Virus record (IMG/VR): IMGVR_UViG_3300029288_000001
Span: 32,001 to 96,000 of that record
Origin: a virus
Taxonomy: Duplodnaviria; Caudoviricetes
Direction: 5' to 3' (one strand)
Length of the DNA: 64,000 nt
Position numbers and translations under genes: made by a program. Below are positions 1 to 57,147 of this stretch, one piece after another (the first letter of the stretch is position 1; each line of letters starts with the position of its first letter). A model generated the notes under the pieces. It was not told the origin of the DNA and did no database searches. It was given only the letters and a program-made list of their open reading frames with translations.

Positions 1-397
1 GAGCGATCTTCTCTTCGTAGCAGTGGTTAAACAGATCGTAACATACTTGGATCTGGTAATGCGTTAAATAGATCTTATACCCTCCTACGTTAAACCATAC
101 GATGTCCGTTTTCTTTTCGCCTTTATCGGCGCCCCACGATACATTGATCGGGGTTTTCTTTTCCTTATACGCGTGCACGGTCTTGAACTCCTTCGCTCCT
201 TTTCCGAGCACTTCGTTTATGGCGGCGATCTCTTCGAGACCTATCTTTACCACCAATCCCTCTTTGTTCGAGGGCTTCTCCCATCCACCGTCCTGTTTCT
301 TCTTCAAAAAAGTTAGATTCATGAACGGCTCGGTGGCGTTCGATCGGATAAGCATACCCGTCGATTTTATGAAAAACCTATAGTTGTGACTGTTCGT
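1..397 (-). CDS. Conserved hypothetical protein, runs off the left edge; probable ACG start
   Basis: Open frame (M)NSHNYRFFIKSTGMLIRSNATEPF...WEKPSNKEG...EEKIA. It follows GGAGG and TAAT-ACG, with an in-frame TGA three codons upstream. Not in the ORF track. Confidence 0.65.
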
Positions 398-398
398 A

Positions 399-671
399 TT
401 ACTTCATATCCTCCTTAATTTTTGATTTTATATCTTCAATAATAAAGTCTATTTTAACTCCTTTTTCGTAGCGGAACGATTGGATCATACTATACCTATA
501 GAGTAAATACGCGGTAAAGCCTCCGTCCATTCTAAGATAATGGTGGATTTGATACCCGTTCCCGAGCTGGATATATTCCTTCCTAGGACCCGTTACGGCA
601 CGCCTACTTATAGGTCGGTTGAGCCTCGTCATTTCGCTTTTAAACCGCTTCGATTCTATTTTTTTTCGCGT
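399..671 (-). CDS. Hypothetical protein (ORF track 399..632, extended to ACG)
   Basis: The in-frame ACG overlaps the upstream stop as TAACG, like the TAATG coupling used elsewhere. Confidence 0.5.
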   Translation of the reverse strand, partial: TRKKIESKRFKSEMTRLNRPISRRAVTGPRKEYIQLGNGYQIHHYLRMDGGFTAYLLYRYSMIQSFRYEKGVKIDFIIEDIKSKIKEDMK

Positions 672-1048
672 TATATCTCATCACTATTATTGTTGTTATT
701 TTTTAGATAATTATCTAAATTACTAGGTTTTTTCGTTGATACATAAATCGTTGATATATAAAAAAAATGAATTTTATAGTTCGCATAGTCTACGTATTGT
801 GTGTTAACTTGATAATAAACCTTAATATCATTATGTAATGTACGATATTCTATGTAATCAATGATAGGAGACTGTTGATTTTTTAGATCGAGTTTCCACT
901 TCTTATCGTCGGGCACATAGAGCTCGTCCATGACCATATCCTTAGGGTCGATCTCGTAGTAGTCCCCTCTTCCTCCGTGCTCGATCCTTACATGGTCTCT
1001 AGCGATCATTACACCGCTTTCCTTATCGTAAAGAGGTTTTTCTACCAT
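671..1048 (-). CDS. Hypothetical viral protein
   Basis: Coupled ORF with RIEHGGRGDYYEI motif and C-terminal SNLDNYL. Confidence 0.6.
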   Translation of the reverse strand: MVEKPLYDKESGVMIARDHVRIEHGGRGDYYEIDPKDMVMDELYVPDDKKWKLDLKNQQSPIIDYIEYRTLHNDIKVYYQVNTQYVDYANYKIHFFYISTIYVSTKKPSNLDNYLKNNNNNSDEI

Positions 1049-1457
1049 GCGTCGTCCTCGTCCTCCTCCTCGTCGTCAGGGTCGTAGGAACTTTCGTGGT
1101 CTTCGTATTCGTGCCCTCGGATCTTCGTCAACTCCTTCTTGACCTCCTCGTAGGTGACTTCTTTATCCTTCCCAAAAACCTTCTGTAATTGATCGTATTC
1201 TTCCTTTTTCATATACCACTTACAGATCTTGTCCGATCTCGTGGAATGGTAGAACTTGGGAAACTTCGCGGGCATCGCCTCGTTCGAGCAGTAGCCTTTC
1301 CAGATCCAGAAACTAAAACATCCCAGCTCTTCGTCGTAGGCGTATTCCTCTTCGGTCCAAAAGACCGTAGGAAAGAAAAACACGCAGCTCTGGCACGCTT
1401 TCACCACTCTATTACAGTGCGCGTCCCAATCGATCGATTTCTTCTCGGACTCGTTAC

Positions 1458-2093
1458 TCATATGTCCACCTCGCGAATTAACTTCGCTTTTTCCCATTTA
1501 CTTTTCCAATGAATGTCGGTCTGAACGTGATTAGCTCTTACGCACTTCGCGATGTTATCGTTAAACTCGGACACTGGAAACGCAGCTTTATTCCTTACTA
1601 CATACCCTTCGCAGACGCTTCCGTAGAGACTCTCTCTTGGAATATGCATTTCGTATCTACTATCAATATCTCCGAGAGTAATAATCGGTGCCGTGTAGAG
1701 CTTGAGCTCGTTGGTTATATCGTACATCTCGTCCGTAGATACGAACACATCGCCTCGCCGTATCGCGAACACGTAGAAGTAAGAAGTTAGCTTCTCGTAG
1801 GTGATCGAGTGGATGGCATACATATTTTCCCCGTAAATGATCATATCGTCAGGGAGGTCGTATTGGAACTTCTCTGCCATTTTGATTATATAAGTCTGCC
1901 ACGGTTTTCCATAGGCGGCAGCGTTATCCGACCGCGCGTGAATATAGTTCTTTGCGATTGCGGTATTCTCTCCGTCGAGTTTTTCCGTGAAGACAAGAGA
2001 TTTATCCTCGAAACATTTTACATTTTCCTTCCGTTTATCGTCGCGGCTTAACTGCTGAGACCACGGCAGGTGCTCTATGCTTGGGAACTTCAT
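1458..2093 (-). CDS. Small ATP-dependent RNA ligase family protein
   Basis: KFPSIEHLPWS start, motif I TEKLDGEN, IYGEN, FYVFAI, EGYVVR, KCVRANHVQTD. Confidence 0.85.
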   Translation of the reverse strand: MKFPSIEHLPWSQQLSRDDKRKENVKCFEDKSLVFTEKLDGENTAIAKNYIHARSDNAAAYGKPWQTYIIKMAEKFQYDLPDDMIIYGENMYAIHSITYEKLTSYFYVFAIRRGDVFVSTDEMYDITNELKLYTAPIITLGDIDSRYEMHIPRESLYGSVCEGYVVRNKAAFPVSEFNDNIAKCVRANHVQTDIHWKSKWEKAKLIREVDI

Positions 2094-2314
2094 TTAATAT
2101 CATCTTTTTCTTTTAGTTTAATTAAATAATCTAAATACCACTTCGCTTTCTTCAAATCCTCTAGTTCTCTTCCTTTAAACTTAGCGCGGAGAATATACGT
2201 TACTACATTGCCTTCGTAGAATCCTAGCTTATACGCGTTTATAACATCCACGGCTTCTATCCCTCCTTGGTTGTAGTGCGAGGGGTGGTTAACATTATCG
2301 TTCTTTTCGCTCAT
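2090..2314 (-). CDS. DUF3310 phage protein
   Basis: DNVNHPSHYNQGGIEAVDVI...GNVVTY...EDLKKAKWYL signature. Confidence 0.9.
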   Translation of the reverse strand: MSEKNDNVNHPSHYNQGGIEAVDVINAYKLGFYEGNVVTYILRAKFKGRELEDLKKAKWYLDYLIKLKEKDDIK

Positions 2315-4617: not shown

Positions 4618-5171
4618 AATAACTACACATCCATTTTATAAAACATTTTATCTTTTTAAACATATTTATCTTACCTCGTCTCATATTATCGAACTCTTTT
4701 AACATTTTCTTAAACTGGCGTTTACTAAGATCGCCGTTCTCGTATATGTGGAGAGGTATCACGCTCCATGCGCCCGTGCGGTCGGAGCCTATTGGATTAT
4801 AGGTAATGTATTTAAACGGATCGTTGTCGTCTGCCATTCCATTACCACTCGCTGTATTCTAATTGTATTTCTCTCCAATCGATTTCGATTTCCTTATAAT
4901 TCTTCTCTCTTAACTCGTCCAAATGATACTCGTCGGTGATCTCGATCGTGCATTTACCGTGCTCGCGAATGTAGTCAAGAATGCCATACATCACGAACGG
5001 ATTAAGTAGTACTTCCCCCCACTTACACACATCGGGATAGAAATATTCCTTCCTCGTGTGGTTTACGATCACGGCTAGAGTTCCCATTTACATCACATCT
5101 TTTCTTAATTGCGGGACTCCCGCGACCAGAGTTAATCGCGATGGATGTCGGTGGTGAAGGAGCCTTTCCGC

Positions 5172-5777: not shown

Positions 5778-5961
5778 TTACTCCTCTCCTTCGTTATTGC
5801 CTCGTCGCACTCGGTACAGATTACTCTTTTCTTGAATTTTTCCACCAATTCCTCGTAGTTCTTCCATTTCGCGTCCCACTCGGCTTGGGGTAGGTTCTCC
5901 GCGTTATACCCGTCCGCCAAATGCATGATCAGTTTACCGCACCTCGAACAATGGATGTAGG

Positions 5962-6225
5962 TCATTCGATCAGCTCTTTTATATGTTTCTCGAAGTTTTC
6001 TACGATCGCTTTTTGTGTGGGACGAACCATCTTACCTTTCTTATCGTAAAGACTACGGAATATGGCACTATTCTTCATTGAAGTCCACTCGTCTAGTAAA
6101 TACTCCGCTTTTATTTTTAATTTGATCGATTCTAACGACTTGGAGTCCGTTCTGGGAGGTCTCGGCTCGCGTGGTTCTTTTTTCGCTTTCTTCTCTTTAA
6201 ACTCAGGCGGCTTAAATAGACTCGT
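5962..6225 (-). CDS. Hypothetical protein with ACG start (87 aa, missed by ORF track)
   Basis: GGAGG-CGCAGT-TAA-ACG AGT CTA. The open frame (M)SLFKPPEFKEKK... fills the gap and ends in an ATGA overlap. Confidence 0.7.
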   Translation of the reverse strand, partial: TSLFKPPEFKEKKAKKEPREPRPPRTDSKSLESIKLKIKAEYLLDEWTSMKNSAIFRSLYDKKGKMVRPTQKAIVENFEKHIKELIE

Positions 6226-6514
6226 TTAACTGCGCCTCCAGATCCGCTAATCCATCCTTTGTTAAGTGTTGATTTAATATTTCAACGAAGCTATTAAACT
6301 TACTCTCGGTATTGAAGTATGTGTCTTTAATCGCGTTTAAGAATTGTATAAGTCCTTTTATTGTTTTTTTATCGTATACGGTGGTAGTATACGATGTGTC
6401 CGATGGTATACCATTGCCTCGATGGAGTTTAATGAAATCTTCCCACTTCGCCTTCTCCGAGGGTGGAACTTTCACTTGAAGGTTTACCAGAGTTTCCTTA
6501 AATAGCTTCTTCGT
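6212..6514 (-). CDS. Hypothetical protein, extended to ACG start
   Basis: GAGG lies 10 nt before an in-frame ACG; (M)KKLFKETLVNLQVKVPPSEK. Confidence 0.55.
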   Translation of the reverse strand, partial: TKKLFKETLVNLQVKVPPSEKAKWEDFIKLHRGNGIPSDTSYTTTVYDKKTIKGLIQFLNAIKDTYFNTESKFNSFVEILNQHLTKDGLADLEAQLNESI

Positions 6515-6573
6515 TGTTTTATAGCCTCTTATTCTTTGTGGTATACTATGATCTATGTATAGTATACGATTAT

Positions 6574-6858
6574 TTAAAGGTTATTATTAACCTCTTGCTC
6601 GTCGATCTCGTAGTATAAATAGTTAATATTGTGATAAGGAATGGACACGATCTTTTCTACTTCGTCTTTAATGATCTTATTCCTATACTCTTGTTTAAAG
6701 CGCACTACCGCTTGACCCATGCCCAAGTATATCTCTTGAAGATATATGCTATATCCATACGCATTTGGGTGAAATATAAATTGACATTCGTGAGATACTC
6801 CAGTCTTCGTGTCTAGATTTATTTTCTTTATTTTTACCCATTCTCCTACGTAGCTCGT
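6574..6858 (-). CDS. Hypothetical protein with ACG start (94 aa, missed by ORF track)
   Basis: TAA AGA ACG AGC TAC; the frame (M)SYVGEWVKIKK... fills an otherwise empty gap. Confidence 0.65.
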   Translation of the reverse strand, partial: TSYVGEWVKIKKINLDTKTGVSHECQFIFHPNAYGYSIYLQEIYLGMGQAVVRFKQEYRNKIIKDEVEKIVSIPYHNINYLYYEIDEQEVNNNL

Positions 6859-9487: not shown

Positions 9488-11324
9488 CCCGATTGTTGTT
9501 GATATAATAACGCTTTTTTAAGCTCTTCGTCTATTTTCTTATTGTTTTCCTCTTGGTTCTCTCCTTTTTCGATCAACGCGCAGACCGTTCCTAGATAAGT
9601 AGTATGGCACTTCAGACACGAACAATACGCTCTATCGAATAGATAATAGTCTTGGTTGGTCTTTTCGCTCGCGACGATGTATCCTAGAAACGCGATCTCG
9701 CTCGCGTGGCACTCCGCGCATTTTAAAACGGTAGACCGATAGAGTACTCTATTCTTGTATTTATATTTCTCGTTGCCTATTCCTATCCACACGGTTGGGG
9801 TTATTACTTCCCAGTCGTATTCTTCTTTATCGTCGGTCATAATATTATATCACCATTTTTACTATTATATACCACATAAACTTCTTTTTCTATAATTCTA
9901 TCGAACGGAAGCTTATTGTATCTACCATTCCATTTCTTACTGCAACAATAATTAACCGCCTCTCCGTAGGTATAGAACACGAGAAAACGCCTTTTATGAA
10001 TGATAAGATACCATTTATCGAGATTTAATAACATTCCTATGGTATTTTCTATCGAGAATTGGGTCTCCCACTCGTTTACCTCTTCTCTAATTCTTATCGT
10101 ATGCGATCGCGCTCCTATTCAATAATTGGTTTAACCCAATCGGGTATAGGTTTATCGTTTAATAGAAACTCTACGGTTTCGTCCATTAAAACGCGAAGAT
10201 CGTAACTATAGAATTGGTGTTTAATTACTACGGGTATGTTACTCGTATATCTTGCTATTAATTCTTGGATCGTTCTCGGGTCGGGATTCATGGATTTCCA
10301 CACCAGCGTTGCCGGCATCTCGCATTTACTCACGCCGTGCTTCTTAACGGTTAAATAATCGTCCTTACTCGGTTCTTGTAACAACTCCCAACCCACCCAC
10401 CACGCTTGTTTTTCTATTTTCATGAAACAACCTCTATTATTTGTTTAATCTACAATTGTCTTCGTCGCACCCACAACCGCATAACCAGAGGTGGTGGTCT
10501 TCGAACTTGAATTTATCGTCTTGGTCGGCATAGAACTCTCTAATTACTAAATCGAGTATTTCCGTGCAAGATCCATTTCCTACGGGGCAGATCGTTAGAT
10601 CGGAGAGTAATTTTCCCAGTTTCTTCCCTTTCGGATAGTCCATGATCTTTTTTTCTATGTTACTCAAGAAACTCGCGTTTTTCTTCATACTTTTTTCCAC
10701 CCATTCTTTAAATATTCTTGTATGTGATCTTTAAACTCGTCTGTATCGTAGTAATCTTGGGCAATTCTATTATGACAAAAAGTGTCGTCGGGATTAAGTA
10801 AGATCATCACGGAACTATCGTAGTCTACATCCATGCGTTCTATTACTCCATCGGGAAGGTTAGATCCGAACGGGGGCACGAATGCCATGTCAACCTCGCG
10901 CCATATTCCTACATTATGTTTGTTGGGAGCGTTTAATCCAGAATACACCCATCTTTCTAATCGTATTTTCATTCTACATCGTCCTCGCGTTTTACGATCT
11001 CTATAGCGGTAATTTCGTGGAAGGGGAATATATATTCTACGAACGGTGCGTCTCTTTTATGATATTGTTTATGGCGGATCTTTAACGCCGCTTGTCCCGA
11101 TCCAAAGTATTTATCGATGTAATAAAGACAAGTCTTATGTCCATAATTATCGATACAAACAGCGTGGTTGTCTTGAAAAAAGAAAGGTTCCTTTGGTTTA
11201 ATCCACCCCGTGCCTCTTCCCGACCACGACTCGGTTTCTTCCTGCCCTGAGAGGAGCGCAGTTGGCATTTTATTTTCATTAAACGAGATATTGATAAAGC
11301 TCGCTTCTTTCCATTCTTCGTCCA

Positions 11325-13968: not shown

Positions 13969-14184
13969 TTATTTAAATTCTTCTTGCACTTCTATTACGA
14001 ATGTATACACTCCTCTAGATAAACTCATGGTAGATATGTGCGTGGTAAGCTCCTCGAGCGTTTTAAAACTCATGTCAAAATGCACGGGTATGTCCATATA
14101 TTTGGAATCGTTCTTGTCATACGCCTGTTTTAACGGACTATTCAAGTTCGCGTTGTAAAATCCATATAATTTGTAATATGTCGT
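13969..14184 (-). CDS. Hypothetical protein with ACG start (missed by ORF track)
   Basis: GAGG lies 7 nt before ACG ACA TAT; a 71-aa frame fills the gap. Confidence 0.55.
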   Translation of the reverse strand, partial: TTYYKLYGFYNANLNSPLKQAYDKNDSKYMDIPVHFDMSFKTLEELTTHISTMSLSRGVYTFVIEVQEEFK

Positions 14185-14186
14185 TA

Positions 14187-14474
14187 TTAATCCTCTCCTT
14201 TCGCGATCGCTTCTTTATTGGCGATATATCTCGGGTAATCGGGTAGTTCGCTAACGATCTTTAACTTAGTTCTCCCATCGTGACCGTGTAGGATTCTTAC
14301 CGTTTCTAGACAATCTGCGATCGTGGTAGTGGCAATATCAGATAACCATCTATACGCCACTGTGCCATCGGAAAACACTATACCTTCCGCTATGATACCA
14401 GTGCCGCTAATTCCGCTTACATCTTCAAACCGTTCTAATATGAAATACTTCGTGATCTTATCTACCTCTTTCGT
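14187..14474 (-). CDS. Conserved phage hypothetical protein; ACG start at 14474 or 14453
   Basis: The family motif FILERFEDVSGISGTGIIAEGIVFSDG extends upstream of the track's GTG. No ATG is in frame; two in-frame ACGs have SD-like motifs. Confidence 0.7.
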   Translation of the reverse strand, partial: TKEVDKITKYFILERFEDVSGISGTGIIAEGIVFSDGTVAYRWLSDIATTTIADCLETVRILHGHDGRTKLKIVSELPDYPRYIANKEAIAKGED

Positions 14475-15474: not shown

Positions 15475-15654
15475 TTATAACCATTTATCCAATCCGACTC
15501 CTTCTTTCTTTTCTTTATCCTTTAACGGGCAATAATATTTTCTATTACACAGCTTCTTCATATCAACGATCAATGGATACGAGCAGTAGGCGTAGTTTCT
15601 TAATCCTCCGCACGATTCTATCGTTTCTATGTGCCGATACGGACAGTCGGGCGT
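15475..15654 (-). CDS. Small Cys-rich protein with ACG start
   Basis: TAACG overlap with the upstream stop; (M)PDCPYRH...CPL...GLDKWL. Confidence 0.6.
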   Translation of the reverse strand, partial: TPDCPYRHIETIESCGGLRNYAYCSYPLIVDMKKLCNRKYYCPLKDKEKKEGVGLDKWL

Positions 15655-15934: not shown

Positions 15935-16651
15935 TTATTTTATCTCCTCATCCGGTTCTTTTTCTTCTTTTTCTTCCAATTCGATCTCCTCTAACAAAGG
16001 AGGTCCGTTAAAACTATAATTGATCGTCTGGATAAACTTCTTGACGGATTCGTCTCCAAACTTCTCGATGTCTTTAAGCTCCTTCTCGGGAGCGTTTACC
16101 ATCTTCTTAAGCGTGTCGAACTTCTTTAACGCGTTCCTCGCTCCCGTTTCGATGATACGTAGACCAGACGCGAGCACCATGTTGACCGCGCGGTCTTCCG
16201 TCTTGACTTTAAGCGTGACGGGCTTAATGATTTTATCGTCGTAGCTCTTTTCAATAATTCTACTCGCTAAGTATACGGCGGCTTTCTTAGCTGGCATGGG
16301 AATACACGGTATTCTATACCGCCCGTTAATAGAACCTATTGCCCCCATGATCGCGTTTATGTTAATGTGCTCTTCTGCGGCAAGACTATCCCAACTGCCA
16401 TAGACGATGTAAAAGAACTTAATAGTTGGATTAAGGTGCATGTTATAAAGCTGGTTACGGAAGCGTTCTCCTCTATCTACCGTTAACGCGCTCCATAAAT
16501 CCTTGAAACTCTTTAACTCGATCACGACATCCTTGTATTGGATATCTCCTATTTCCAGTTTTTTCTTTTTCGCTAACGGAAAATACTGTAACACTAGATC
16601 GAGCGTGGGTTGATAGTCCTTCGTGCGAGCCTCGGGCTCGGAGGTGTCCAC
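15935..16651 (-). CDS. ERCC4/XPF-family nuclease with C-terminal HhH
   Basis: DTSEP, LEIGDI, IELKSFKDL nuclease motif; ELKDIEKFG HhH. Confidence 0.85.
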   Translation of the reverse strand: MDTSEPEARTKDYQPTLDLVLQYFPLAKKKKLEIGDIQYKDVVIELKSFKDLWSALTVDRGERFRNQLYNMHLNPTIKFFYIVYGSWDSLAAEEHININAIMGAIGSINGRYRIPCIPMPAKKAAVYLASRIIEKSYDDKIIKPVTLKVKTEDRAVNMVLASGLRIIETGARNALKKFDTLKKMVNAPEKELKDIEKFGDESVKKFIQTINYSFNGPPLLEEIELEEKEEKEPDEEIK

Positions 16652-18203
16652 CCATACTTCGAATTCCTTTGGATCTACTTTTTTTACCGTTTTCCACGCA
16701 CCGTTTTAATTTGTTATTATAAAATACTAAAAAAAATTATTTAATTAATCTCTTTTAAAAGGTATTGATTTATTCCTCCTCTTCTTCGCCTTCTCCTTCC
16801 TCTTCTTCCTCGTCCACTTCGTCTTCTCCTTCCTCTTCTTCTTCCGTTGCTGCGGGAGTTGTCGGAGTAGTCGCGTTCTGGACGGTCTCGGGGATAGTAA
16901 GCTGTTTCTTGCCTGGTAGTTCGAGCATCATGACCATGTCTTCGTCCTCGTAGAACATCTCGTCCGACCAGTCGCGTAGCTTGTGTAAGGACTTCTCTTC
17001 CTCGTAGGTAATCGAGATACCGTGCTTTCCTTTGAATAGGACTTTTCTAACCTCGACCACGCGAATTTCCTTGGTCTTTTTGTCCTTCATCTTCTTTTTC
17101 TTGTCCTGAATCCCTGCGAGTTTTAAGGTGAAGGTAAACTGTTTTTTTCCTGCCATATTTTTTCCTTTTTATTTTTTTAAATATTCCTCGATCACTTTTC
17201 GAACGAGATAGGTGTTATTAACCAGTTCTTTGTCGGCATCTGGGTGGTTTTCTACCCATTTCTTAGTTAATTCGTCTAGTAACGAATGTTTTAATCGTAT
17301 CATCGTGTATTCTGAAATAATGAATCTTCTCGTTTTAAGTGATGTTATTATAATATAATATGATATACTATTATATAAACTTGCTATTAAATGAATATTA
17401 ATACATTATTAGTTCGTTGTTAACAACGATTTTTAACCTTCTCTACCATATACGATCTATGGAACCTATCATTTCGATCCATATAGGCAATTACATAAAA
17501 GACATTTTCGCCGCCGAGTTTAACAAAGAATATTGTTCGTATAACTCTTCCAACGAAGCCCAGTGCGTCAATTACCTAGACTTCGTGCGGAGAACTCGTG
17601 GGCATAACCGTTGCTACCTCTGTTATTTATGTAAGTATTTTAATATCGAGAAGTTACGGTTTAATGTGCCAAAAGAGTTAATTCGTCAGACGGAGCTAGA
17701 ACTTAATCAATCGCCGTAGAAGGATGTTTTGGACATGTGCACTGTTCTGTTGGAACTAGAGTTCTCCCTGTATAGCCAAATGGTATTTTCTCGATTGTGC
17801 ATCGTTCCACTTGATCGGCGAGCGTTCTAAAATCTTGGAACGGTTGGTCTGCAAGCGTGCGATCGGGATTATCTTCAACGAGTGCATCTACGGCTTTATC
17901 CCGCATTTTACACATAGACTCACATACGCTCTTGCAATGAGCCGCGGCTGGATAACACATATTACTGGTAGCATTATCCCTTTTTGGTATTCCTGAGATA
18001 ATATATCCTTCCGTTCTCCACGCCGTGGTGTTTGGACTCTTTCCTGCCATGCTTTCCAGCTCTTAACTCGTTTTAAGACTTTTATAATAAGTTATACTAT
18101 TATTATTGTTTTCTACTTATTTAAACTTTAATAAGAGTCGTTAAATTTTAACACTCTCTCTATTTTAAATCTAATTTTATCTTATAGTTATTTGTGATTT
18201 TTT

Positions 18204-18500
18204 ACGATCAAAGTTGAAGATGTAATTCTATATTTCGAAAAAAATGTGCTCGTTAAAAACGATCTTTTAAGAGAAAATAAAGACCTCGTTATCCACGCGA
18301 TTCGCGACGTCCACGAATATATCGTGCGGAACTTTGGTATGATGCCTCCTATACGGAGTATAATCGCTCTAGCGCTGTATAAATCCACGACCTTCGCTAA
18401 ATACGAGATCGCAGGTATGGTCGGAATCACCCTTACTACCTTTAATAAATACATACGAAAGCTCCCTATTTCTTTTTCCGACTCCTTGGAGACCGTTTAG
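18204..18500 (+). CDS. Small TFB/TFIIB cyclin-repeat-like HTH protein; probable ACG start
   Basis: P..SIIALALY...KYEIAGMVGITLTTFNKY resembles the TFB C-terminal repeat. TGA TTT TTT ACG lies upstream in frame. Confidence 0.5.
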   Translation, partial: TIKVEDVILYFEKNVLVKNDLLRENKDLVIHAIRDVHEYIVRNFGMMPPIRSIIALALYKSTTFAKYEIAGMVGITLTTFNKYIRKLPISFSDSLETV

Positions 18501-24724: not shown

Positions 24725-25024
24725 TCACACCTTCTCGTTTAATTTCCATATTTCTATGATGTTCTTCTTTTCGAACTGGACGCGATCTCCATAGTGTCCA
24801 TAATCGGAGGAGTTTATTGTTCTATTGGCTAACAATCCTTCTATCTTATCGCCGTTTATTTGTGCGACGCTTATCCATAGTCTCTCGCCGTATTTCCCGT
24901 CGTCGTCGGTAAGGATTATCTTAACGAGATCGGCTACTCTAACGGCGTCCTTTTCTTCCTTGGAAGGTATCCAGAAGGTATCTGGGTACTTCCTATGATT
25001 TTCTTCTTCATCTACTATTTTCGT
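24725..25024 (-). CDS. DUF2314-like protein with ACG start (missed by ORF track)
   Basis: TAA TAA CCT ACG AAA; YPDTFWIPS...DLVKI...GERLWISV...GLLAN...GDRVQF. Confidence 0.6.
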   Translation of the reverse strand, partial: TKIVDEEENHRKYPDTFWIPSKEEKDAVRVADLVKIILTDDDGKYGERLWISVAQINGDKIEGLLANRTINSSDYGHYGDRVQFEKKNIIEIWKLNEKV

Positions 25025-26629
25025 AGGTTATTATCCCCCCAATAAAAGTTTTCTCATTTCTTCTGGCGTGAGCTCGTTACGAAAGATCTCCTCTCGAATT
25101 AGTCTTATCTCTTCTCTAAGATCGCGGATGATCGCGTTCGATTTGGCTAATTCTCCTTGTAAGCGTTCGTTCTCGAACTTTAATTTTTTATAGGCTAGTT
25201 CCAATTCTTGATATAATCGAATGTTGTTGGAATGGTATTGTTTTGGAGTCATTCGTTCCCCTCCAGATAATCGTCGTAGGTGTCGTTGGAACACTCGCTT
25301 TCGTGCGCGTCCCAACAATCGAAACATAGATCCGCGTCGCAATACTTACAATTATAAGATTTGGAGAGATCCTTTCCGCATTCCGCGCATTTTATAGGCG
25401 GATAATATTTGGTTTTCGCCATTATATTTCACCTCATTCTAAATATAACTTGGTGTAGTAGTCGTCTCCGTTAATACCGTGTTTCTCTAAGAGGTAAGTC
25501 TCTAAATCCAAGAGTATATCGTCTATCACATTGTGGATACCCTTCAAATCAGAAACTTCTTTCTCTTCTTTAAATTCTTCAAACTCTATTTTTATCTTTC
25601 TTACCATTCTATATCACTCTTAGTTTCTCTATAATAGTATATAACTTACCCGCTGTTAAATCGTCCACCTTGCCACAGTTTCTTTGGTGCGTGGCGATAA
25701 AGTCCTTAATCACGCATAGCGCGTCTAGCACCAGATCCTGTAGCGTTTCCGTTTTTTCGTTTAACTCGTCTAAACTTAATTCTACCGTTTTTTTATCCCT
25801 TCTTTTTATAATAATCGTCTATAAAACTAAGAAAACCCTTTATTTTGTTTTTCCACGTCGGTCTTGAAAACACGAGCGCGGTCTTCTCGTCGCTAGGGTC
25901 GTATTCTATGTATTCGAGTTTTCTCCCTCCCGTCGAAGGATCGGTGGTAAGAGTAATAAACGAATCCGATTTTATTATTTCTATTTTTGGCGAGTAGTCT
26001 GGAATGGTATACTCGTTCTCTTTCTTCTCTTCGCTCATGCCTTCCACCTCGCTACTATCCACGCCATTAATAAAACTAATAGAAACGCCGCGAGCACGCC
26101 GCACATCGCTCCTATAAACATAACGATCACATCTTCCATGGTAAAACATTCTGTCGCTAGAACGATCGTGTTATACCACCTCGAGCGCTATTAATATGCG
26201 GAGCGCTAACAGCCCGACTAAGAGAATCAAAATTCCTAGAAACATCCATAATCCATACTCTGGCTTACCCGCGCGATAGATCGCTGTGCTGAAATTGACC
26301 CATTGGTGGAGCTGGTCGTGAGTGATCTCCCCCCGCTCGGCTTTTCCTTGCATTTCCACGAACTCGGCGTAGAGCTCTTTTCTTCTCTTATGCATATTCT
26401 TTTCTCTCTTTTAAATTGTTATTTCTTTATTATAAGGTTTTGTTATAATTTGATCGCAGATAGCACATTTTATACTATGCATATTAAAAACCCAGATTTG
26501 TTTATGATTTAAAGATCGCGTTTTACCGCACTTACAAACAATATCGTACTTTCCCGTTTCTTTGTTAAAACATTTTTCTAAATACTCTTTTGTTTCTTGT
26601 TCTTCTTTCGTTAGAATTTGATCGGTCAT

Positions 26630-27370
26630 TTATTCCTCTTCTCCTCCGTTAATAATATCGTCCATTCCCATTTTCTTTAACCTCCATTTAATTAAGAACT
26701 TCTCGAACGGCACTGGGTCGGGCTTCTCGGGCAAGAAAGTATGAGTATACGCCTCGTTAAGCTTGTTCTTCAAGTCCCAGAGCTCTTCCTCCTTGGTAAT
26801 TTCCACCTTCTCGAACATGGGCTTCCCCCACACAAATACGTTGATTCCGAACTTTAACGATCGTCCGATGGTGTTAAGCTTCTTCTTATAAATTAACGAG
26901 TTTCTGTCGATCTCTCTCGTGGGAGCCTTTTCGCCTTTTCTTACCTTTCCCGTGCGCGAGCCCGTGCCAGTTATGAAGTGGTAGATGTTGTGCTCTGCCA
27001 TTCCATTGATCGAGTGAAAGCAGTTCTTCGCAATGGTCTTAATCGCGATCTCTCGTAGCTCGCGCAGCACGGAGCGATATTCGTTTACCACGATCGGAGA
27101 GGTGACCGCCCATAGATAATTTACATTACCCTTAAGGACTTCGCGCACACAGTTTCCTAGATCGCACGATTGCACGTCCGATTCTCGCTCTACGCCGTTG
27201 TAGGTCTCCTTACCCTTATATTCTCGGTTCCGCCTCGTCTGTTGGAGAAGGAAGTCCCTCGAGTCCATAATATAAACCTCGTTGATGTCCAGGTCTGAGG
27301 TCGGTTTTTCCATGCCCCACATATGACTGCCTGTTATAGTTCTAAACGCTAATAAATCGTTCTCTTTCGT
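26630..27370 (-). CDS. Phage nucleotidyltransferase (Pol-beta superfamily), extended to ACG/ATA start
   Basis: The catalytic ITGSHMWG...SDLD motif begins upstream of the track's ATG. An in-frame TAA precedes AAA ATA ACG. Confidence 0.8.
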   Translation of the reverse strand, partial: TKENDLLAFRTITGSHMWGMEKPTSDLDINEVYIMDSRDFLLQQTRRNREYKGKETYNGVERESDVQSCDLGNCVREVLKGNVNYLWAVTSPIVVNEYRSVLRELREIAIKTIAKNCFHSINGMAEHNIYHFITGTGSRTGKVRKGEKAPTREIDRNSLIYKKKLNTIGRSLKFGINVFVWGKPMFEKVEITKEEELWDLKNKLNEAYTHTFLPEKPDPVPFEKFLIKWRLKKMGMDDIINGGEEE

Positions 27371-27752
27371 TATTTTTTATCGCTCTCCTTTTTTTGTGAT
27401 ACCATACCCACGAGTAAGATCATGATACAGATCCAATACGCGTCTTCCGAGATGTTGGTAACTCCTACAGCTTTTAACACAATAAACATTATTTCTATTA
27501 TTAACAACACCCACGCGCCAGCTTCGCTCATTTTTTTTTCATTCTCCTTTCTTTATTCTGGAAACCCATAATAATGGGGTTTTTTCAACTCTATTTTTTC
27601 TAATATAATATAAGAACTAGGAGATGTCCACTCCACTTTCAATTTATACTTCCCGCATAATTGGCAGTATCTAACTTCCGTGCGATCGTCTGGGAACTCC
27701 ACCGCATCTATATTTCCTCCGCACAATGGACAGACATCTAACTCGTCTTCTT

Positions 27753-28601: not shown

Positions 28602-29021
28602 TTATGTTTTATACGGTAGTTGTAAATCGGCGCTGGTAATCAATTTACTGAGGTCGATCGTCTCGCGCACGGATTTTATCTGTCCATCGGGTAGTTTTAT
28701 CAACAGCTCGGTAAGGAACTCCTCTTCGATCGTGCGAATGCCAAAGTCTACGCTGGTAAATCGTGCTTTAAGATAATACAGTAACGCGCGGTAAAGCTGT
28801 TGTTTGTAGTTCTCTTGGGTCGGTAGCTTGAATTGTAGTCGGAACCCTCGTTCCACGCCGTTGATCTCTAAGATAAACTCGATCACGCCAGTCTCCGTGT
28901 ATTCCGTAGTCCGTATTCCTTTAAGGTTGTATTTCTGTAAGAACTTGCGGATTTCGCCCTGCGTGTTCGCTACGTCTACTTTAGACCTGTAATACGGTAG
29001 CTCGGAAAACTTCTTCGTCGT
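28602..29021 (-). CDS. Conserved hypothetical protein, extended to ACG start
   Basis: GAGG lies 8 nt before ACG; the frame is open for 45 codons upstream of the track's GTG (LPYYRSKVDVANTQGEIRKFL). Confidence 0.65.
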   Translation of the reverse strand, partial: TTKKFSELPYYRSKVDVANTQGEIRKFLQKYNLKGIRTTEYTETGVIEFILEINGVERGFRLQFKLPTQENYKQQLYRALLYYLKARFTSVDFGIRTIEEEFLTELLIKLPDGQIKSVRETIDLSKLITSADLQLPYKT

Positions 29022-42424: not shown

Positions 42425-43735
42425 TTATGTACCGCCCCCGAGCTTCTCTTGTAAGTTCCTCAAATGCGTGATGATTCCCGCGTATAACTGAATACCGTTG
42501 ATTCCCATGTCGTCTCCTAATCCTTGTTTTGTTTGATCAATCCACGCGAAGATTGCGTTAATGTCCTTAGCGACCTCCGCCTTCTCGACCCATTTCTTTC
42601 TGCGAGAACATCTCTTTTTTCTATCCTCTGGTCTATACGAACAATAACCGTTGCAATTGAGGTCTTCGCATTCATAACATAAATCAAAAGGATGAGAGGG
42701 TTCCGCCGCCGCGCCCTTCTCTATTGGTTTAAAATAATCACATATTCCCCATGTATCTACATTCAAGCAATCCTCAGACATATATTGCGAGCAGAATTCC
42801 TTACAAGTTGGTTCGTCGTAAGGTTCGCCCTTCGGTTCAAAACTACTATATTCTTCGTCGCATTCATCGCATTCGGGAGAAGGATCTTTAAACATACATT
42901 CTTCGCATTTCTGAAACATTTTAGAGGGTTTCGATTTCGAGTCGGTCTCTTTCTCTAATTCCGTTTGTCGTAGGTTATAGCCTTGCCAGAACTCGTTTGA
43001 TTTCTCGATCTCGGTCTTGTCTTCCTTCGATTTAAAGATCGGTAATCCACACATGTTTCCGTGCGAGTCTCGAGCACAGTTAGAAGTGTCGATGGTATAA
43101 TCCTTCGGCTTCGAGTCGGTTGAGGGGACTTGAACCCCTATTCCTCCCGTAAGAGAGTCTTTCCCCAGCTCGCGAGCCTGTTCCGCTTGTCTCGGAATTA
43201 GACTGACAACCGATTTCTCGCCCGAAGGCTCCTTCTCTTTCTCTCGTTCTTTGCTACAACTACTTGCGTGATTTACGGGTAGTCCTCCACATTCGGGGCA
43301 TCTAATCGAAGACTCCTTCACTTCGTGTAATTTCTGAGAGAGTTTTCTAAATAAATCAGACGCAATAGAATCAGAAGGTATTCTGCCTTCCGTAACATCC
43401 TTTAGTATGGATTCGATAAGAAAGAGCGCCCCGCGCAGAGCTTCGTTCTCTTTTCGAATATTTACTAATGTTATATTAGTTTTCGTGATCTCTCCCATTT
43501 CAGCTCCAATTCGTTCTTTAATATGCTCTCCTAATTGGTTGAACTGGGCTTCCAGCTTCTCAATCTTAGGCTCTATGAAGTTCTCTTGTCCAATACCACC
43601 TAATATCATCGCCTTCTCGGAGATCCAAGCGTTAATTCGTTTTAGAACTTCAGAATGGTTGTTGTCGAGGCTCGCGACCTTCTCTTTTAGATCGTTAAAT
43701 TCCTTTCGTTCTATATAGTCCATTTCTTTCACCAA
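42425..43735 (-). CDS. Mosaic protein B: coiled coil and Cys-rich cassettes
   Basis: Shares IEKLEAQ, LRGAL, KEPSGEKSV, TDSKPK, GAAAEPSH, KAEVAKDI and EKLGG with mosaic protein A. Confidence 0.7.
   Translation of the reverse strand: MVKEMDYIERKEFNDLKEKVASLDNNHSEVLKRINAWISEKAMILGGIGQENFIEPKIEKLEAQFNQLGEHIKERIGAEMGEITKTNITLVNIRKENEALRGALFLIESILKDVTEGRIPSDSIASDLFRKLSQKLHEVKESSIRCPECGGLPVNHASSCSKEREKEKEPSGEKSVVSLIPRQAEQARELGKDSLTGGIGVQVPSTDSKPKDYTIDTSNCARDSHGNMCGLPIFKSKEDKTEIEKSNEFWQGYNLRQTELEKETDSKSKPSKMFQKCEECMFKDPSPECDECDEEYSSFEPKGEPYDEPTCKEFCSQYMSEDCLNVDTWGICDYFKPIEKGAAAEPSHPFDLCYECEDLNCNGYCSYRPEDRKKRCSRRKKWVEKAEVAKDINAIFAWIDQTKQGLGDDMGINGIQLYAGIITHLRNLQEKLGGGT
43116..43213 (-). ncRNA. tRNA-like element embedded in a CDS (no anticodon loop)
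   Basis: Acceptor stem TCGGTTG/CAACCGA, T-arm AGGGG-TTCAAGT-CCCCT, D-stem AGTC/GACT with an enlarged loop, and CTCT-TACG-GGAG in place of the anticodon arm. Confidence 0.7.
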
Positions 43736-47098: not shown

Positions 47099-47491
47099 TT
47101 ATCCAACCATCGGGTTCCATACTTCCCCTCTCGCTTCTACTTCTTTCTTAATTTTTAGTAACTTAATTAATATCTGCCCATGACACTTCAATGGCGTTAG
47201 AGTGCGCGTCGTTGCACACCAACATCCAAGTCTTAACCCCTCGAGCTCGTTCAGGTTAAACATCTTCGGATCTAACGAGATTCGTTTCCGTATGTAGTTC
47301 TCGTATAACTCCAACGCTTTCGCGCCGTATTTCTCGATCGAAAACGGGTTCGCCCATTTCGAGTCCTTGGGAAACTCCTCGTGGAGCGCGTGCGTTCTCA
47401 TCTGAGCGCGACCTATGTAGAGGTCGTAGTGGGGACGCACTCCTTTTACCTTGTGGATGTCGATAACCATGCTCATTACAACCACCCCCAA
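47099..47491 (-). CDS. DUF4326 family protein
   Basis: YDLYIGR...SKWANPF...LGCWC...CHGQIL. Confidence 0.88.
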   Translation of the reverse strand: MGVVVMSMVIDIHKVKGVRPHYDLYIGRAQMRTHALHEEFPKDSKWANPFSIEKYGAKALELYENYIRKRISLDPKMFNLNELEGLRLGCWCATTRTLTPLKCHGQILIKLLKIKKEVEARGEVWNPMVG

Positions 47492-47730
47492 TATAGAATG
47501 TCAAGGTCGCGTTCGTCTTGTAGTTTGGATACCTTTATCCATTTCTCCGTTAGTCTATTTATAAAATTCAATAATTGTTGAGGCGTGAGCACTTGGAATT
47601 GAGAACAATCCTTTAATTCTCGCGGTAATTTCTCCCACCCCTCCTGTAATTGGAGGTGTTTAAAATTCATTATTTTATCCATTATTTTACAGTTGGTTTT
47701 ATGATCGCAGATATCGCATATTGGAATCGT
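47476..47730 (-). CDS. Hypothetical protein, extended to ACG start
   Basis: GGAGG lies 8 nt before ACG ATT CCA; the extension adds a CDICDHKTNC motif. Confidence 0.6.
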   Translation of the reverse strand, partial: TIPICDICDHKTNCKIMDKIMNFKHLQLQEGWEKLPRELKDCSQFQVLTPQQLLNFINRLTEKWIKVSKLQDERDLDILYWGWL

Positions 47731-53278: not shown

Positions 53279-53926
53279 TTATATTATTTTTATTTGTTTA
53301 TAAATCTTTTTATCGTTACTCTTAACATATTTCTTGTAATCGAACGACACTAATTCGCGATCGAAGTGAATTCCTATGTTGTTAACCCATAGCACCACGA
53401 TCGAAGGGAAGTTCGACACGCTCATTACTTTCTTTAATAAAGGTTTTCCCGTTTTCGGATCGATGACTTTCAGACCCGTTTTCTTGTCCACGACCTCCTT
53501 GTAGTAGAATGGCTTCCCGTCCACGAGGAAGTTAATGCGTCCTTTACAGAGAAGGAAATACTGGGCGTGGTAACAATAATCGTGGAAATATTTAGTCTCC
53601 GTCCTCGCGGGTATGAGCAAGGCGATCAGGCATCTACGATTATGGAGAACGGCTTCGTCGTGCTCGAAGGAACATTTCATAGACCATTCCTTTACATGCG
53701 AGTAAGGAGGGTTCACGAACACGAGTTCCTCTTTCCACGATTGTAAGAGACCGTTGGTCTCCTTCGTGAATACTTTGGGAGCTTTCTTGTTCTTCTCCGT
53801 GCCACACGCGTCCAGAGTAAATTCTACATCTAGAAACGATTCTAGCGCTTTTACGACTTCTGGAGGAGTTTCCCAGTCATCGGAGCTCGTTTCCTTGGGA
53901 GCGCGGCTAAAACCTTCTTTATTCAT
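53279..53926 (-). CDS. Phage-type DNA N6-adenine methyltransferase (Dam family)
   Basis: DDWETP, FTLDAC, NGLLQSW, FVNPPYS, LIPARTETKYFH, GRINF. Confidence 0.92.
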   Translation of the reverse strand: MNKEGFSRAPKETSSDDWETPPEVVKALESFLDVEFTLDACGTEKNKKAPKVFTKETNGLLQSWKEELVFVNPPYSHVKEWSMKCSFEHDEAVLHNRRCLIALLIPARTETKYFHDYCYHAQYFLLCKGRINFLVDGKPFYYKEVVDKKTGLKVIDPKTGKPLLKKVMSVSNFPSIVVLWVNNIGIHFDRELVSFDYKKYVKSNDKKIYKQIKII

Positions 53927-54731
53927 ATCGCACCTGATTTCTTTCCGTTTTATTCGTTTCTTTATCGTATAGTCTAAACTCTTTTATTTTACAGATAGGA
54001 CAGTTAAAATATTTAAAAACATAAAAAATAGTCGTTAGTTGATATATCTTCTTTTTATGGTTACATTCGATCATTTTTTTAAGTCACCTCAAGAAGTACG
54101 AGATCGCCGTATTTTAATTCTGCACCACATTTCTCGCATTTAAAATCACATAATTCCAATTGTATATCAGAATTTGAAGTACAGTCTGACCAAGGATAGA
54201 AAACTTGATTCAAACGAGTAATTCCTGTTTCCCCTAGATCGTTGGGACACGCTAAATAAAATATAGACATTTTTGGCTCACTTCTCCGTGATCCTTATCG
54301 TGGTAATGAGTTTCTCTCCTTCTTCTTTATGGTTTACATTCATAACACCAACTTGCCTATCGTAGATAAAATGTAGCGCGTCCAACACTTCCTGCGTATC
54401 GTGTTTATGAGCACTAAATAGACCGCACAAGAACTTTTCGTTTTTAACCGTTATTACAACGGTGTTGCGTTCGTGCGACACGCGGAATACCCACGCGGCG
54501 AGCTGGGCTTGTAAGCCCTTGTAAATCCAAGCTATATTGAAGGGAATTTTCTGTGCGCGAAGGATCGTCTCTACTAACGATAAATGAGAGGTAGCAGAGC
54601 GTTGTAACATGTGTTGGGTAAGGAACTCTTTATTACCGTCCGTGAGCTCGTTCCAGAGCTCGTCTGCTTTCTTAGCGGGATATTCTACACCTTTTTTAGC
54701 GAGTTCTAATATAAGATCGTCCTTCTCTACT

Positions 54732-54974
54732 TTAGATATTTCTATTTCTTCCATCTTTTCTTTCCTCCATTAGGTAGTTTATAAACGCGATTATGTCCGA
54801 CATGCACCCGCGATCGAACATCGTATTGTTCTCGGGAAAGAAGCAGTATTGCCTCCACGCGCCGCTCCATTTCACATAGCCTATTACCAAGTTGTTGGTG
54901 TTGTTAACCACCTCGTATAGGTTCGTTTTCTCGCCTTTATGTTTTAATTTAAAATCTATGTAATGTTTACTCGT
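54732..54974 (-). CDS. Conserved phage hypothetical protein with ACG start (missed by ORF track)
   Basis: GAGGTGA-AAAAGA-ACG AGT AAA with in-frame TGA upstream; (M)SKHYIDF...KWSGAWRQYCFFP. Confidence 0.75.
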   Translation of the reverse strand, partial: TSKHYIDFKLKHKGEKTNLYEVVNNTNNLVIGYVKWSGAWRQYCFFPENNTMFDRGCMSDIIAFINYLMEERKDGRNRNI

Positions 54975-55539
54975 TCTTTTTCACCTCTATGAAATCTTCG
55001 GGAGTTTCTTTTATTTTCATCTTCCACGATCGTTTTCTTTTCTGTTGTACTTCAATACTCCACGGAGAGCAGTCCTTCACTCGTTTCGATACATTCTCGT
55101 AGCACCACCGCGCGAAAGTCCCTAGCACCGCTCTGCTACTATCGGAATTGTCGAATCTAAGCTCTACGCGGTCTCTATTCTTCCAGTTCCTCTGTTCGTT
55201 GTCGCCATAGACCGAGATTCCTTCCTCTGGATGATAATTCAAGAGAATACTATATCCTCCTTCCCAAGAAGCGAAATCAAGATCCATACTACCGTCTCCG
55301 CATTGATTCATCATAGGTTTTTCGATCGTTAAGTTCCGTTCCTGATAGTATTTCTTAATACTAAGGGCAATTTCGATCGCTTTATCGATCGTGGATTCTA
55401 AGATAGGTTCCGTATCGTCGTCGTCCGCCCAGCCTTTTACACTACAGTTCTTCAAGATATACGCTTTTTCTTCGTCAAAAATCCACGGTTCGCTCATTCC
55501 TCTTTCTCGCCTCCTTTTTCTACTTCGATCTCGTTCCAA
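54967..55539 (-). CDS. Hypothetical protein with C-terminal PEDF tag
   Basis: Ends KETPEDFIEVKKNE; the true start is probably at MSEPW. Confidence 0.6.
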   Translation of the reverse strand: MERDRSRKRRRERGMSEPWIFDEEKAYILKNCSVKGWADDDDTEPILESTIDKAIEIALSIKKYYQERNLTIEKPMMNQCGDGSMDLDFASWEGGYSILLNYHPEEGISVYGDNEQRNWKNRDRVELRFDNSDSSRAVLGTFARWCYENVSKRVKDCSPWSIEVQQKRKRSWKMKIKETPEDFIEVKKNE

Positions 55540-57147
55540 TCGTCTAAATAGATTTTAGGTTCTCCTTTTTTTATTTTCACAATATTTACATTAACAATTG
55601 TTTTTTTTATTGGCTCTACTTCGATCTTATTCCAATACAGGTCTTTTTCCGTAACTCCATCTACTTCTTGGTATAAGAGTTTTATTATCTTTTCCGCGCG
55701 TAGGTTTAAATACGCCGATTTTGGATCGGTAGCGATCATGATTTCCGTTACGAGCCTTTTTAATTCCTCGTATACTTCTTTTTTCACGTTAATACTCGTC
55801 CTCCCAATCGTTACCCCACTCGTCGTCCTCGTCGAGATCGAAGTTCTCGTCTATGAAATCTTCTATTATATCTGGAGTCCACCACTCTTCGCACTTGGGA
55901 CACCAACCTCCTTCCTGCGCGTCGTAGTTCTCTAACGCGCCTCCACAATCGGGGCATATTCCAAAATAATTCATTCTTCTCTATCCTCCTTTATTTCTAT
56001 AAACTTATTAATCTTCGCAGAAACGCTCTCCTTTTCTTTTTCTTCTCTTCTTTTCTCTTGTTTCTCCTTTCCAACGCTTGATTACGTATCTCTGCCATGT
56101 TTTGGCAGTGTTCAAACGCTAAGAGGTATCCCGCGGTAGATATATATCGAATAAACTTCAAGCACATATTAATCGTCCATATCGCTCCAATCGTCGTCTG
56201 GATCCCAATAGTCGTAGCGATCCTCGTCCTCGAACTTATCGTAGTCGGGACCGTCGTATTCCCCGTTGGTATATCCTTCTAACCATTGATCCTCTAACTC
56301 GGCTTCGCGTTCTTGTTCTTGTTCTAGGTCTTGTAGCGCGTAGATACAACCCATCTGAGCAAGATATTCTCGGTCTGCTACGAGATCGTTGGTAAATACG
56401 TTCTTTATCTTACAGTTCTTACAGTCTTGATTACATTTCTCTACCATTTTTATCTATACCTCTTTAGCGGTGTTGGGTGTAAACGGCGTTTCATGCACTC
56501 TCGGCACTTCTTTTTCGAAGGATCGTAGTTACATAAACACATCCGCCTATGCGGGCTACAATTCTTATCTTCTCCTCTCGTATTATCCCACCTCCATTTC
56601 TAATACTTTTTTTTCGATCGTTTTTAATTCTTTCTTTATGTCGGGGCAGTCGGAAGTATCGATCTCGCATTTAATTCCTTTGGAGTCCATGAGTTGTTTC
56701 GCTAACACTAAGAACCCATACAACAACCGTAGCCTAGAATCGAAGATGTCGTAGCCCACATCGCCCCATATGTTTCTGCCAATATTTGGCGACATACGAA
56801 GATCTTGTATAAACTGGATGCCTTCTATTCTAATTCCGAAATACCACGCGATCCTATCTTCCATCGTCTTGAAATGGGTTTCGCAGAACTCGCAGTCGTC
56901 GCGATCGCAGGATGGTGCGGTAAGGTCGCGCGAGTCTACTACTCTTAATATTCTTCGTAGGAGCGCGTCGTTTTTTAATCGGTAGCCTCCTTCCACGCTC
57001 CATCTTTTATAACTGTCCTTATCGATCGTGGGAGGGTTCTCCTCCATCTCGTTGTAAAGATCGAGTGGGAACTTCTCGTTAACGATAATAAACAATTGTA
57101 ATGGGTCTACCTCTTCTTTAAACTCTAACCATATTGATTGTACCATG

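Follow-up and report, generated by a model that had tools for sequence, protein, structure and literature searches.

ACG is probably a systematically used start codon in a jumbo virus of a probable Asgard archaeal host

We analysed the translation starts in a 64,000-nucleotide (nt) stretch of viral DNA, hereafter the window, which comprises bases 32001–96000 of the IMG/VR record IMGVR_UViG_3300029288_000001 (Duplodnaviria; Caudoviricetes), and extended the analysis to the whole record, a single 224,826-bp contig of 41% GC. Our results suggest that ACG is probably a real and systematically used start codon in this archaeal jumbo virus, read as a near-cognate codon by the ordinary initiator methionyl-tRNA (Met-tRNAi) and often placed at junctions where translation of neighbouring genes would be coupled. 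A preliminary description of the window, made from its sequence, had proposed systematic initiation at ACG in about 16 genes; that core idea is now backed by statistics, gene spacing, domain boundaries and a comparison with the host lineage, and the putative ACG starts extend beyond the window to about 35–40 genes genome-wide, on both strands and between genome positions 29 kb and 210 kb. Allowing for a few false positives in that figure, roughly one gene in eleven most likely starts at ACG, which exceeds GTG and TTG together.

The record is entered in IMG/VR as a virus with direct terminal repeats and a completeness estimate of 100%, and nearly all of its genes are small, tightly packed and on the minus strand. 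It encodes an archaeal replication set consisting of an MCM helicase, a RadA/Rad51 recombinase, an AAA_22 ATPase and an intein-bearing DNA methylase. A PHROGs search with ten large virus proteins recognised neither a capsid nor a terminase. The virus MCM shares 52–57% identity with the MCMs of many Promethearchaeota metagenome-assembled genomes (labelled Loki, Hermod or Thor) and 44% with that of Promethearchaeum syntrophicum. Because its MCM is closest to those of Promethearchaeota, the host of the virus is probably an Asgard archaeon.

Start codons were estimated with an expectation-maximisation model in which all 61 sense codons had free probabilities, while coding potential was scored by codon usage and the upstream sequence by a 22-nt weight matrix. 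Over 426 open reading frames (ORFs) of the virus, the model assigned 269 starts to ATG and 40.1 (9.4%) to ACG, followed by ATA (8.4), GTG (8.1), ATT (6.2), TTG (0.6) and CTG (0); the other threonine codons received 4.5 (ACT), 3.0 (ACC) and 0.04 (ACA). The same code returned ACG for 0.03 of 428 ORFs in 400 kb of a Thorarchaeota chromosome (bin27, 47% GC) and for 0.02 of 376 in 400 kb of P. syntrophicum MK-D1 (30% GC), and because the ACG signal is near zero in both controls, the model does not itself create ACG calls. In these control genomes it also placed 57 of 376 starts on ATT (MK-D1) and 30 and 17 of 428 on ATC and ATT, respectively (Thorarchaeota), which may reflect real AUU and AUC initiation or an artefact of AT-rich genomes with weak Shine–Dalgarno (SD) motifs. 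In the virus, about 48 ORFs were put on GAA or AAA, frequently one codon before an ATG, and many of these calls are artefacts of the purine-rich weight matrix. A likelihood test that admitted one codon at a time ranked ACG first (gain of 356 log-likelihood units); it is not relied on here, because purine-rich codons scored high too: an ORF without a good start is ‘rescued’ by any codon that is frequent. On pooled Loki loci of 30% GC the model was noisy (AAA, ATT), and an analysis of orthologous start columns, given below, was used for these instead.

The enrichment of ACG is also seen in direct counts of codons at SD distance. When only codons no further downstream than an ORF’s first canonical start are considered, a GGAG ending 7–11 nt upstream precedes 18 of 259 ACG codons, compared with 284 of 13849 (2.05%) for all other non-canonical codons (p=8.9e-6) and 15 of 565 for ACA, ACC and ACT combined (p=0.004); the corresponding figures for GTG and TTG are 6/140 and 1/204. 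When trinucleotides were counted at each distance after GGAG wherever at least 60 codons stay open, the ATG count was highest at 8–11 nt, and at 7–11 nt ACG occurred 47 times, compared with 15, 27 and 28 times for ACA, ACC and ACT. Off phase, at 9–10 nt, the count was 20 for ACG, 2, 8 and 6 for the other threonine codons, 11 for GTG and 3 for TTG.

The putative ACG starts resemble ATG starts in their surroundings. In 31 confident ACG starts the upstream profile matches that of 203 confident ATG starts: positions −14 to −8 are rich in G, the spacer is rich in A, position −3 is A, and G is almost absent from −1. The two sets do not differ in SD-core frequency, ribosome-binding site (RBS) score or gene length. 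They do differ in the base that follows the start codon, which is A in 23 of 31 ACG genes and in 85 of 203 ATG genes (p=9e-4). Gene spacing points to the same positions: measured from ACG, the gap to the upstream gene has a median of 1 nt (interquartile range (IQR) 0.5–17), whereas it would be 70 nt (39–104) if the first canonical start were used instead, compared with 11 nt for ATG genes. Between ACG and the first canonical start, codon usage scores 0.1–0.3 per codon at most sites, as in gene bodies. A stop codon followed by one nucleotide and ACG occurs at 8 of the 31 confident starts, and TAACG at 2 of 31; at such stop–start junctions the SD lies inside the end of the upstream gene, a layout that is, to all appearance, that of translational coupling. 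The densest cluster of putative ACG starts lies outside the window and comprises five genes within 5 kb (genome 137833–142936, plus strand). The SD is strong in four of these (GGAGG, GAGGG or GGTGA), and the junction is TAAnACG in three.

For two genes, conserved domains require a start upstream of any canonical one. In a DUF2314-like ORF (ACG at window position 25024) the Pfam match covers residues 16–91 and begins ahead of the first canonical start, which lies 63 codons in, so that a non-canonical start is needed. In a nucleotidyltransferase (ACG 27370) the RlaP match begins at residue 7 and the catalytic GS motif occupies residues 14–15, whereas the first ATG encodes a conserved Met after GSH, and a TAA stands two codons before the ACG. 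In an exhaustive HMMER search, 127 homologues had a median of 12 residues (IQR 10–15) before the GS glycine; the virus protein would have 13 from ACG and 14 from the adjacent ATA. Because the GS motif and the N-termini of the homologues lie upstream of the first ATG, this gene must start at ATA or ACG. The preliminary description had correctly placed the GS motif before the first ATG, although the in-frame ATA that adjoins the ACG has a slightly better SD spacing, and it is on spacing that the start model prefers ATA.

Comparative evidence for near-cognate starts came from a related contig and from the cellular MCM genes of the host lineage. Megablast of 12 kb of the virus against GenBank phages gave no match, viral contigs scanned with the nucleotidyltransferase, MCM and an MCM alignment held no relative or one at 30% identity, and metagenome contigs scanned with MCM returned only cellular Asgard MCMs at no more than 55% identity. 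A search with the AAA ATPase identified one related 2.4-kb Logan contig, L196 (SRR12486999; 77% amino acid and 74% nucleotide identity), which covers no ACG site and one ATA start. This start belongs to a 63-amino-acid (aa) DUF2997 gene outside the window (genome 127976–128167, minus strand) that has no canonical start and that the model begins at ATA; in L196 (2271–2462) an ATG stands exactly at the position of the virus ATA, after the same TAAACT. Orthology thus confirms a predicted near-cognate start in the virus, for ATA and not for ACG. A search for paralogues within the virus found only two pairs, and neither was decisive. In the pair at genome 197368 and 197810 (minus strand, outside the window), the copies are 39% identical in an alignment that begins at residue 3 of each. 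One copy has its start at ACG behind GGAGAGGG; the other lacks a canonical start nearby and opens with GAA ATC directly behind an in-frame TAG.

The start column of the cellular MCM was aligned across 44 Promethearchaeota contigs, whose proteins share the N-terminus [M]TTP(L/M)SSP. This column, which is preceded by GGTGA or AGTGA and stands two codons past an in-frame TGA, is strikingly variable: it reads ATG in 14 contigs, TTG in 12, ACG in 8, ATA in 3, and GTG, CTG and ATT in one each. About 19 further gene families in these Asgard MCM loci showed no ACG at their start columns; one neighbouring family had ATG ten times and ATT five times at this position. The host machinery, then, tolerates ACG and uses it sparingly, which leaves the heavy use by the virus unaccounted for. 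Since the ACG-bearing MCM copies were obtained in several independent projects and stand in no fewer than four sequence contexts, a sequencing artefact is ruled out for them. For the virus itself, an error of sequencing or assembly, or a base modification, by which a true T (ATG) was read as C could be suspected, since there is a single record of this virus and it carries DNA methyltransferases. Such errors, however, would not pick start positions; 269 ATG starts in this record are normal and share that sequence context, and several independent Asgard assemblies have ACG where other MCM genes start with ATG or TTG. We therefore regard an artefact of this kind as highly improbable.

Several observations weigh against systematic ACG initiation. 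ACG is the commonest threonine codon in the virus, and roughly 4–6 of the model’s ACG calls are probably false positives, as judged from ACC and ACT. Most of the ACG genes are small ORFans without homologues, the searches described above yielded no orthologue covering any ACG site of the virus, and the genome is represented by a single record. An in-frame ATA directly precedes the ACG at 671, 14184, 15654 and 27370, where ‘ATA ACG’ mirrors the common AAATA-start context that precedes ATG too. In the sampled Asgard cell genomes there are almost no ACG starts outside MCM, and the lineages with the closest MCMs have about 30% GC, compared with 41% for the virus. Part of this would fit a reading in which the ACG codons are not starts at all but a by-product of composition, the ORFs in question beginning at a downstream ATG, GTG or TTG or at some other codon, or being dying genes or chance ORFs. 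A usable canonical start does lie 13–16 codons downstream of 397, 671, 6514, 14184, 47730 and 53968, and the model made other, artefactual calls. This reading would nevertheless leave the enrichment of ACG at SD distance over ACA, ACC, ACT and other NCG codons and its near absence from both control genomes unexplained; it would also open gaps of 39–104 nt (IQR) in a tightly packed genome, discard extensions that mostly carry coding signal and leave two domains that cannot be made from canonical starts. On balance we consider it unlikely.

We propose that the host small ribosomal subunit would be placed at ACG by ordinary SD:anti-SD pairing (GGAGG-type, 7–11 nt upstream) or, alternatively, would already be on the mRNA after terminating on the adjoining upstream gene. 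ACG, mismatched only at its middle position, would then be read as near-cognate by the ordinary initiator Met-tRNA (CAU), so that the protein would begin with Met; its yield would probably be lower than from AUG. The A directly after ACG may help: an A at +4 could pair with U33 of the initiator tRNA in the extended codon–anticodon model. ATA, and perhaps ATT, would be used likewise, though less often. The tRNA that reads ACG, the N-terminal residue and the expression level are all points that we infer from sequence. Among the four mechanisms offered by the preliminary description, relaxed initiation or translational down-tuning gives the best fit. In E. coli reporters, ACG supports initiation at 0.1–1% of AUG and yields an N-terminal Met (10.1101/063800), and in ribosome profiling of Haloferax about 30% of the putative alternative initiation sites are near-cognate (PMC7261190).

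The preliminary description had also considered an initiator tRNA or factor encoded by the element. More broadly, a dedicated component acting during infection, whether a CGU initiator-like tRNA from virus or host or a factor that lowers proofreading, could make the ACG genes a regulated set. The contrast between 40 of 426 ACG starts in the virus and approximately 0 of 428 and 376 in the Asgard cell genomes would fit such a component, as would the lack of a recognisable family for most virus proteins, and a haloarchaeal virus carries a tRNA-Thr(CGU) whose role is unexplained (10.64898/2026.09.13.751334). The virus, however, has five solid tRNA genes (His, Glu, Pro, Ile-UAU and Cys) and two weak, intron-bearing tRNA-like genes, and none of these seven has a CGU anticodon; nor did we find SUI1/aIF1, aIF1A (eIF1A) or a translational GTPase in it, and the only match to eIF2-beta/eIF5 (PF01873) was a sub-threshold, zinc-ribbon-like one of 11 bits. 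Five Asgard genomes with an ACG-starting MCM (G001–G005), whose initiator tRNA loci (L104–L108) were located by BLAST, each have one such locus, with A1:U72, a GGG/CCC anticodon stem and CAU, and none has a CGU look-alike of the initiator. The ACG genes, moreover, equal ATG genes in length and SD strength and are scattered over both strands across 29–210 kb. A dedicated component is thus quite improbable, and the form of it that the virus itself would encode finds no counterpart among the genes searched for.

A tRNA-Met(CAT) reported by ARAGORN outside the window (genome 170868–170944, plus strand), which has an odd D arm, was rejected as an initiator tRNA because it has U1:A72 and the Rfam tRNA model gave no match at E≤0.01. 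The Asgard initiator tRNA genes are split by one or two introns, located at 37/38, in the T-loop region or between the acceptor and D arms, and for this reason ARAGORN and simple pattern searches miss them. Within the window, a tRNA-like element (43115–43213, minus strand) reaches 23.9 bits on the Rfam tRNA model, which is short of the cut-off; its acceptor and T arms are good, its D-loop is interrupted by a 36-nt insertion and its anticodon arm is degenerate, and it is nested in a 432-aa ORF (42425–43723) on the same strand.

The remaining mechanism of the preliminary description, C-to-U editing, would convert ACG in the mRNA to AUG ahead of translation. The chloroplasts and mitochondria of plants create start codons from ACG in this way, by means of PPR-DYW factors, and the virus resembles these organelles in having a genomic ACG where a protein must start. 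ACG is the only codon that a single C-to-U change makes AUG, it stands out among the near-cognate codons (40, compared with 8 for ATA, 6 for ATT and 0 for CTG), and the preference for A at +4 could be a recognition context. Editing would not, however, repair the accompanying ATA and ATT starts, and so leaves unexplained both the virus ATA that corresponds to ATG in L196 and the ATA, ATT and CTG at the MCM column; the upstream context of ACG is that of ATG starts, with no extra motif. A search for the cytidine deaminase domain PF00383 gave no match in the virus and did match the control genomes, other deaminase families and the host genomes lying outside that search. We know of no mRNA C-to-U editing system in archaea. 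Editing is accordingly disfavoured, and we judge it as improbable as a dedicated component.

At the level of individual sites in the window (Table 1), all 17 coordinates given in the preliminary description are ACG in the frame and on the strand described. An SD core (counted as GGAGG, AGGAG, GGAG, GAGG, GGGG or AAGG) ends 7–14 nt upstream at 14 of these 17, in keeping with the SD-like motifs that had been noted, and an in-frame stop was found 0–2 codons upstream at eight (397, 671, 6225, 6858, 25024, 27370, 54974 and 18204). The reported stop–start coupling likewise holds, with TAACG at 671 and 15654 and TAAtACG at 397 and 56581, the TAA being in each case the stop codon of the preceding gene. 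By our assessment, starts at 397, 671, 6225, 6514, 6858, 14184, 15654, 25024, 47730, 54974 and 56581 are well supported as predictions; 10100, 29021 and one of 14474/14453 are probable ACG starts, and 27370 is ambiguous between ATA and ACG. Sites 16690 and 25788, and more weakly 53968, are further candidates. The estimate of about 16 genes was right for the window, where 11 starts have a posterior of at least 0.8 and about 18 are plausible. The single plus-strand site, 18204, is unsupported. For 6225, 10100 and 29021 the model chose purine-rich codons instead (GAA, GAG and AAA); we regard these choices as probable artefacts, given that many of its GAA calls elsewhere fall on the codon preceding an ATG.

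Table 1 Predicted and candidate ACG starts in the window, with their upstream signals and start-model posteriors
Feature	Window coordinates	Strand	Start signals	Posterior	First canonical start (codons downstream)	Remarks
ORF from ACG 397	2..397	-	TAAtACG, 1 nt past upstream stop; AGGAGG ends 13 nt upstream	0.57	ATG, 14	Runs off window start; 259 aa in full genome
90-aa ORF, ACG 671	399..671	-	TAACG overlaps upstream stop (gap -1)	0.84	ATG, 13	
87-aa ORF, ACG 6225	5962..6225	-	GGAGG ends 9 nt upstream; in-frame TAA adjoins ACG		49	Extension coding score 0.26 per codon; model call GAA 6177, probably an artefact
100-aa ORF, ACG 6514	6212..6514	-	GAGG ends 10 nt upstream	0.99	GTG, 13	No homologue in protein search
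94-aa ORF, ACG 6858	6574..6858	-	AGGAG upstream; stop one codon upstream	1.00	TTG, 44	
87-aa ORF, probable ACG 10100	9837..10100	-	AGGAG ends 11 nt upstream; 14 nt past upstream stop		ATG, 22	Model favoured GAG 10073
71-aa ORF, ACG 14184	13969..14184	-	AGGAG ends 10 nt upstream; gap 2 nt	1.00		
88-95-aa ORF, ACG 14474 or 14453	14187..14474	-	AAGG ends 7 nt before 14474; GAGG ends 11 nt before 14453	Split	32 (from 14474), 25 (from 14453)	The two ACGs are indistinguishable
59-aa Cys-rich ORF, ACG 15654	15475..15654	-	TAACG overlapping upstream stop; GGAG ends 11 nt upstream	0.89	27	
251-aa ERCC4-like nuclease, candidate ACG 16690	15935..16690	-	GGTG ends 8 nt upstream	0.95	GTG, 13	Absent from preliminary description; ACG not mandatory, because ERCC4 domain covers residues 42-135
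Claimed ACG 18204, unsupported	18204..18500	+	No SD; T-rich upstream; RBS score -3.9	0.31		Overlapped by minus-strand ORF
99-aa DUF2314-like ORF, ACG 25024	24725..25024	-	Junction TAA TAA CCT ACG after upstream gene	0.83	63	Pfam DUF2314, residues 16-91
59-aa ORF, ACG 25788	25609..25788	-	AAGGGA ends 7 nt upstream; RBS score 10.5; gap 4 nt	0.98	GTG, 19	Absent from preliminary description
246/247-aa RlaP-type nucleotidyltransferase, ACG 27370 or ATA 27373	26630..27373	-	Order TAA AAA ATA ACG			
139-aa ORF, probable ACG 29021	28602..29021	-	GAGG ends 8 nt upstream; 10 nt past upstream stop		45	Extension coding score 0.25 per codon; model undecided
84-aa ORF, ACG 47730	47476..47730	-	AGGAGG ends 8 nt upstream (its AGGAG core scored at 9 nt in motif scan)	0.87	ATG, 16	
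229-aa Dam-like methyltransferase, ACG 53968 or ATG downstream	53279..53968	-	No SD	0.96 (weak evidence)	ATG, 14	ATG would suffice, because Dam domain begins at residue 26
80-aa ORF, ACG 54974	54732..54974	-	GAGGTG ends 7 nt upstream; stop two codons upstream; 8-nt overlap with upstream gene	0.91	GTG, 21	
43-aa Cys-rich ORF, ACG 56581	56450..56581	-	GGAGG ends 9 nt upstream; TAAtACG, 1 nt past upstream stop			Coding score neutral (-0.04); ORF below size limit of ORF set used

The intein-bearing methylase of the replication set also lies in the window (33985–36321, minus strand) and combines an N6_N4_Mtase domain and a LAGLIDADG intein with a C-terminal Mrr-type nuclease domain. Its ORF opens 40 codons before the first canonical start without an RBS, which indicates that the true 5′ end lies elsewhere.

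Initiation at ACG by the initiator Met-tRNA is established in eukaryotic viruses and cellular mRNAs, for example for adeno-associated virus 2 (AAV2) VP2 and Sendai virus C′. The starts proposed here resemble these cases and the E. coli reporters in that a single mismatch to AUG occurs at an otherwise marked start and context matters; in the virus the context would be an SD and A at +4, and a Met N-terminus and lower yield would be expected. The known ACG cases, however, are single genes or alternative isoforms, whereas here ACG would be the sole start of about 9% of genes and outnumber GUG and UUG together, and placement would rely on SD pairing or termination–reinitiation in an archaeal manner rather than on cap-dependent scanning. 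In their SD, 5–10-nt spacer and frequent stop–start overlap, the ACG starts are also like the GUG and UUG starts, and the rare AUU, AUA, AUC and CUG starts, of bacteria and archaea (NCBI table 11) and like the near-cognate sites of Haloferax, although that table does not include ACG and no gene finder allows it. The usual order, in which GUG and UUG rank above the rest, is inverted in the virus (ACG 40, GUG 8, UUG <1). In the literature searched, ACG starts are described neither for Asgard archaea nor for archaeal viruses; what is new is the apparent density of ACG starts in a virus, together with the inverted ranking of start codons.

This density is at least 10 times that of the sampled Asgard cell genomes, the share of ACG being about 9% of virus genes and well under 1% in those cells. 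The virus may use ACG so heavily because a host that has not been sampled shares this habit, because selection on the start codon is weak at coupled junctions, or because many small genes are deliberately expressed at a low level. It is also conceivable, though doubtful, that the approximately 40 ACG genes form a regulated set and that virus or host shifts start-codon stringency in infection. An aIF1-type proofreading step might then be titrated or modified, or an unrecognised factor or RNA might act, so that the ACG genes would be switched or throttled together.

If systematic initiation at ACG holds true, about 9% of the genes of this virus are mis-annotated by every standard gene finder, as truncated or missed genes or as false gaps, and other Asgard-associated elements and genomes are likely to suffer from this error too. 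The finding bears on how the output of many small viral genes may be tuned independently of promoters. Start-codon stringency is set by aIF1/eIF1-type factors common to archaea and eukaryotes, and a natural system in which ACG exceeds GUG and UUG together would offer a handle on the evolution of this stringency near the archaeal–eukaryotic boundary. Should the ACG genes prove to be a regulated set, this would represent the use, at the level of a virus, of eukaryote-like start-codon control in an archaeal system.

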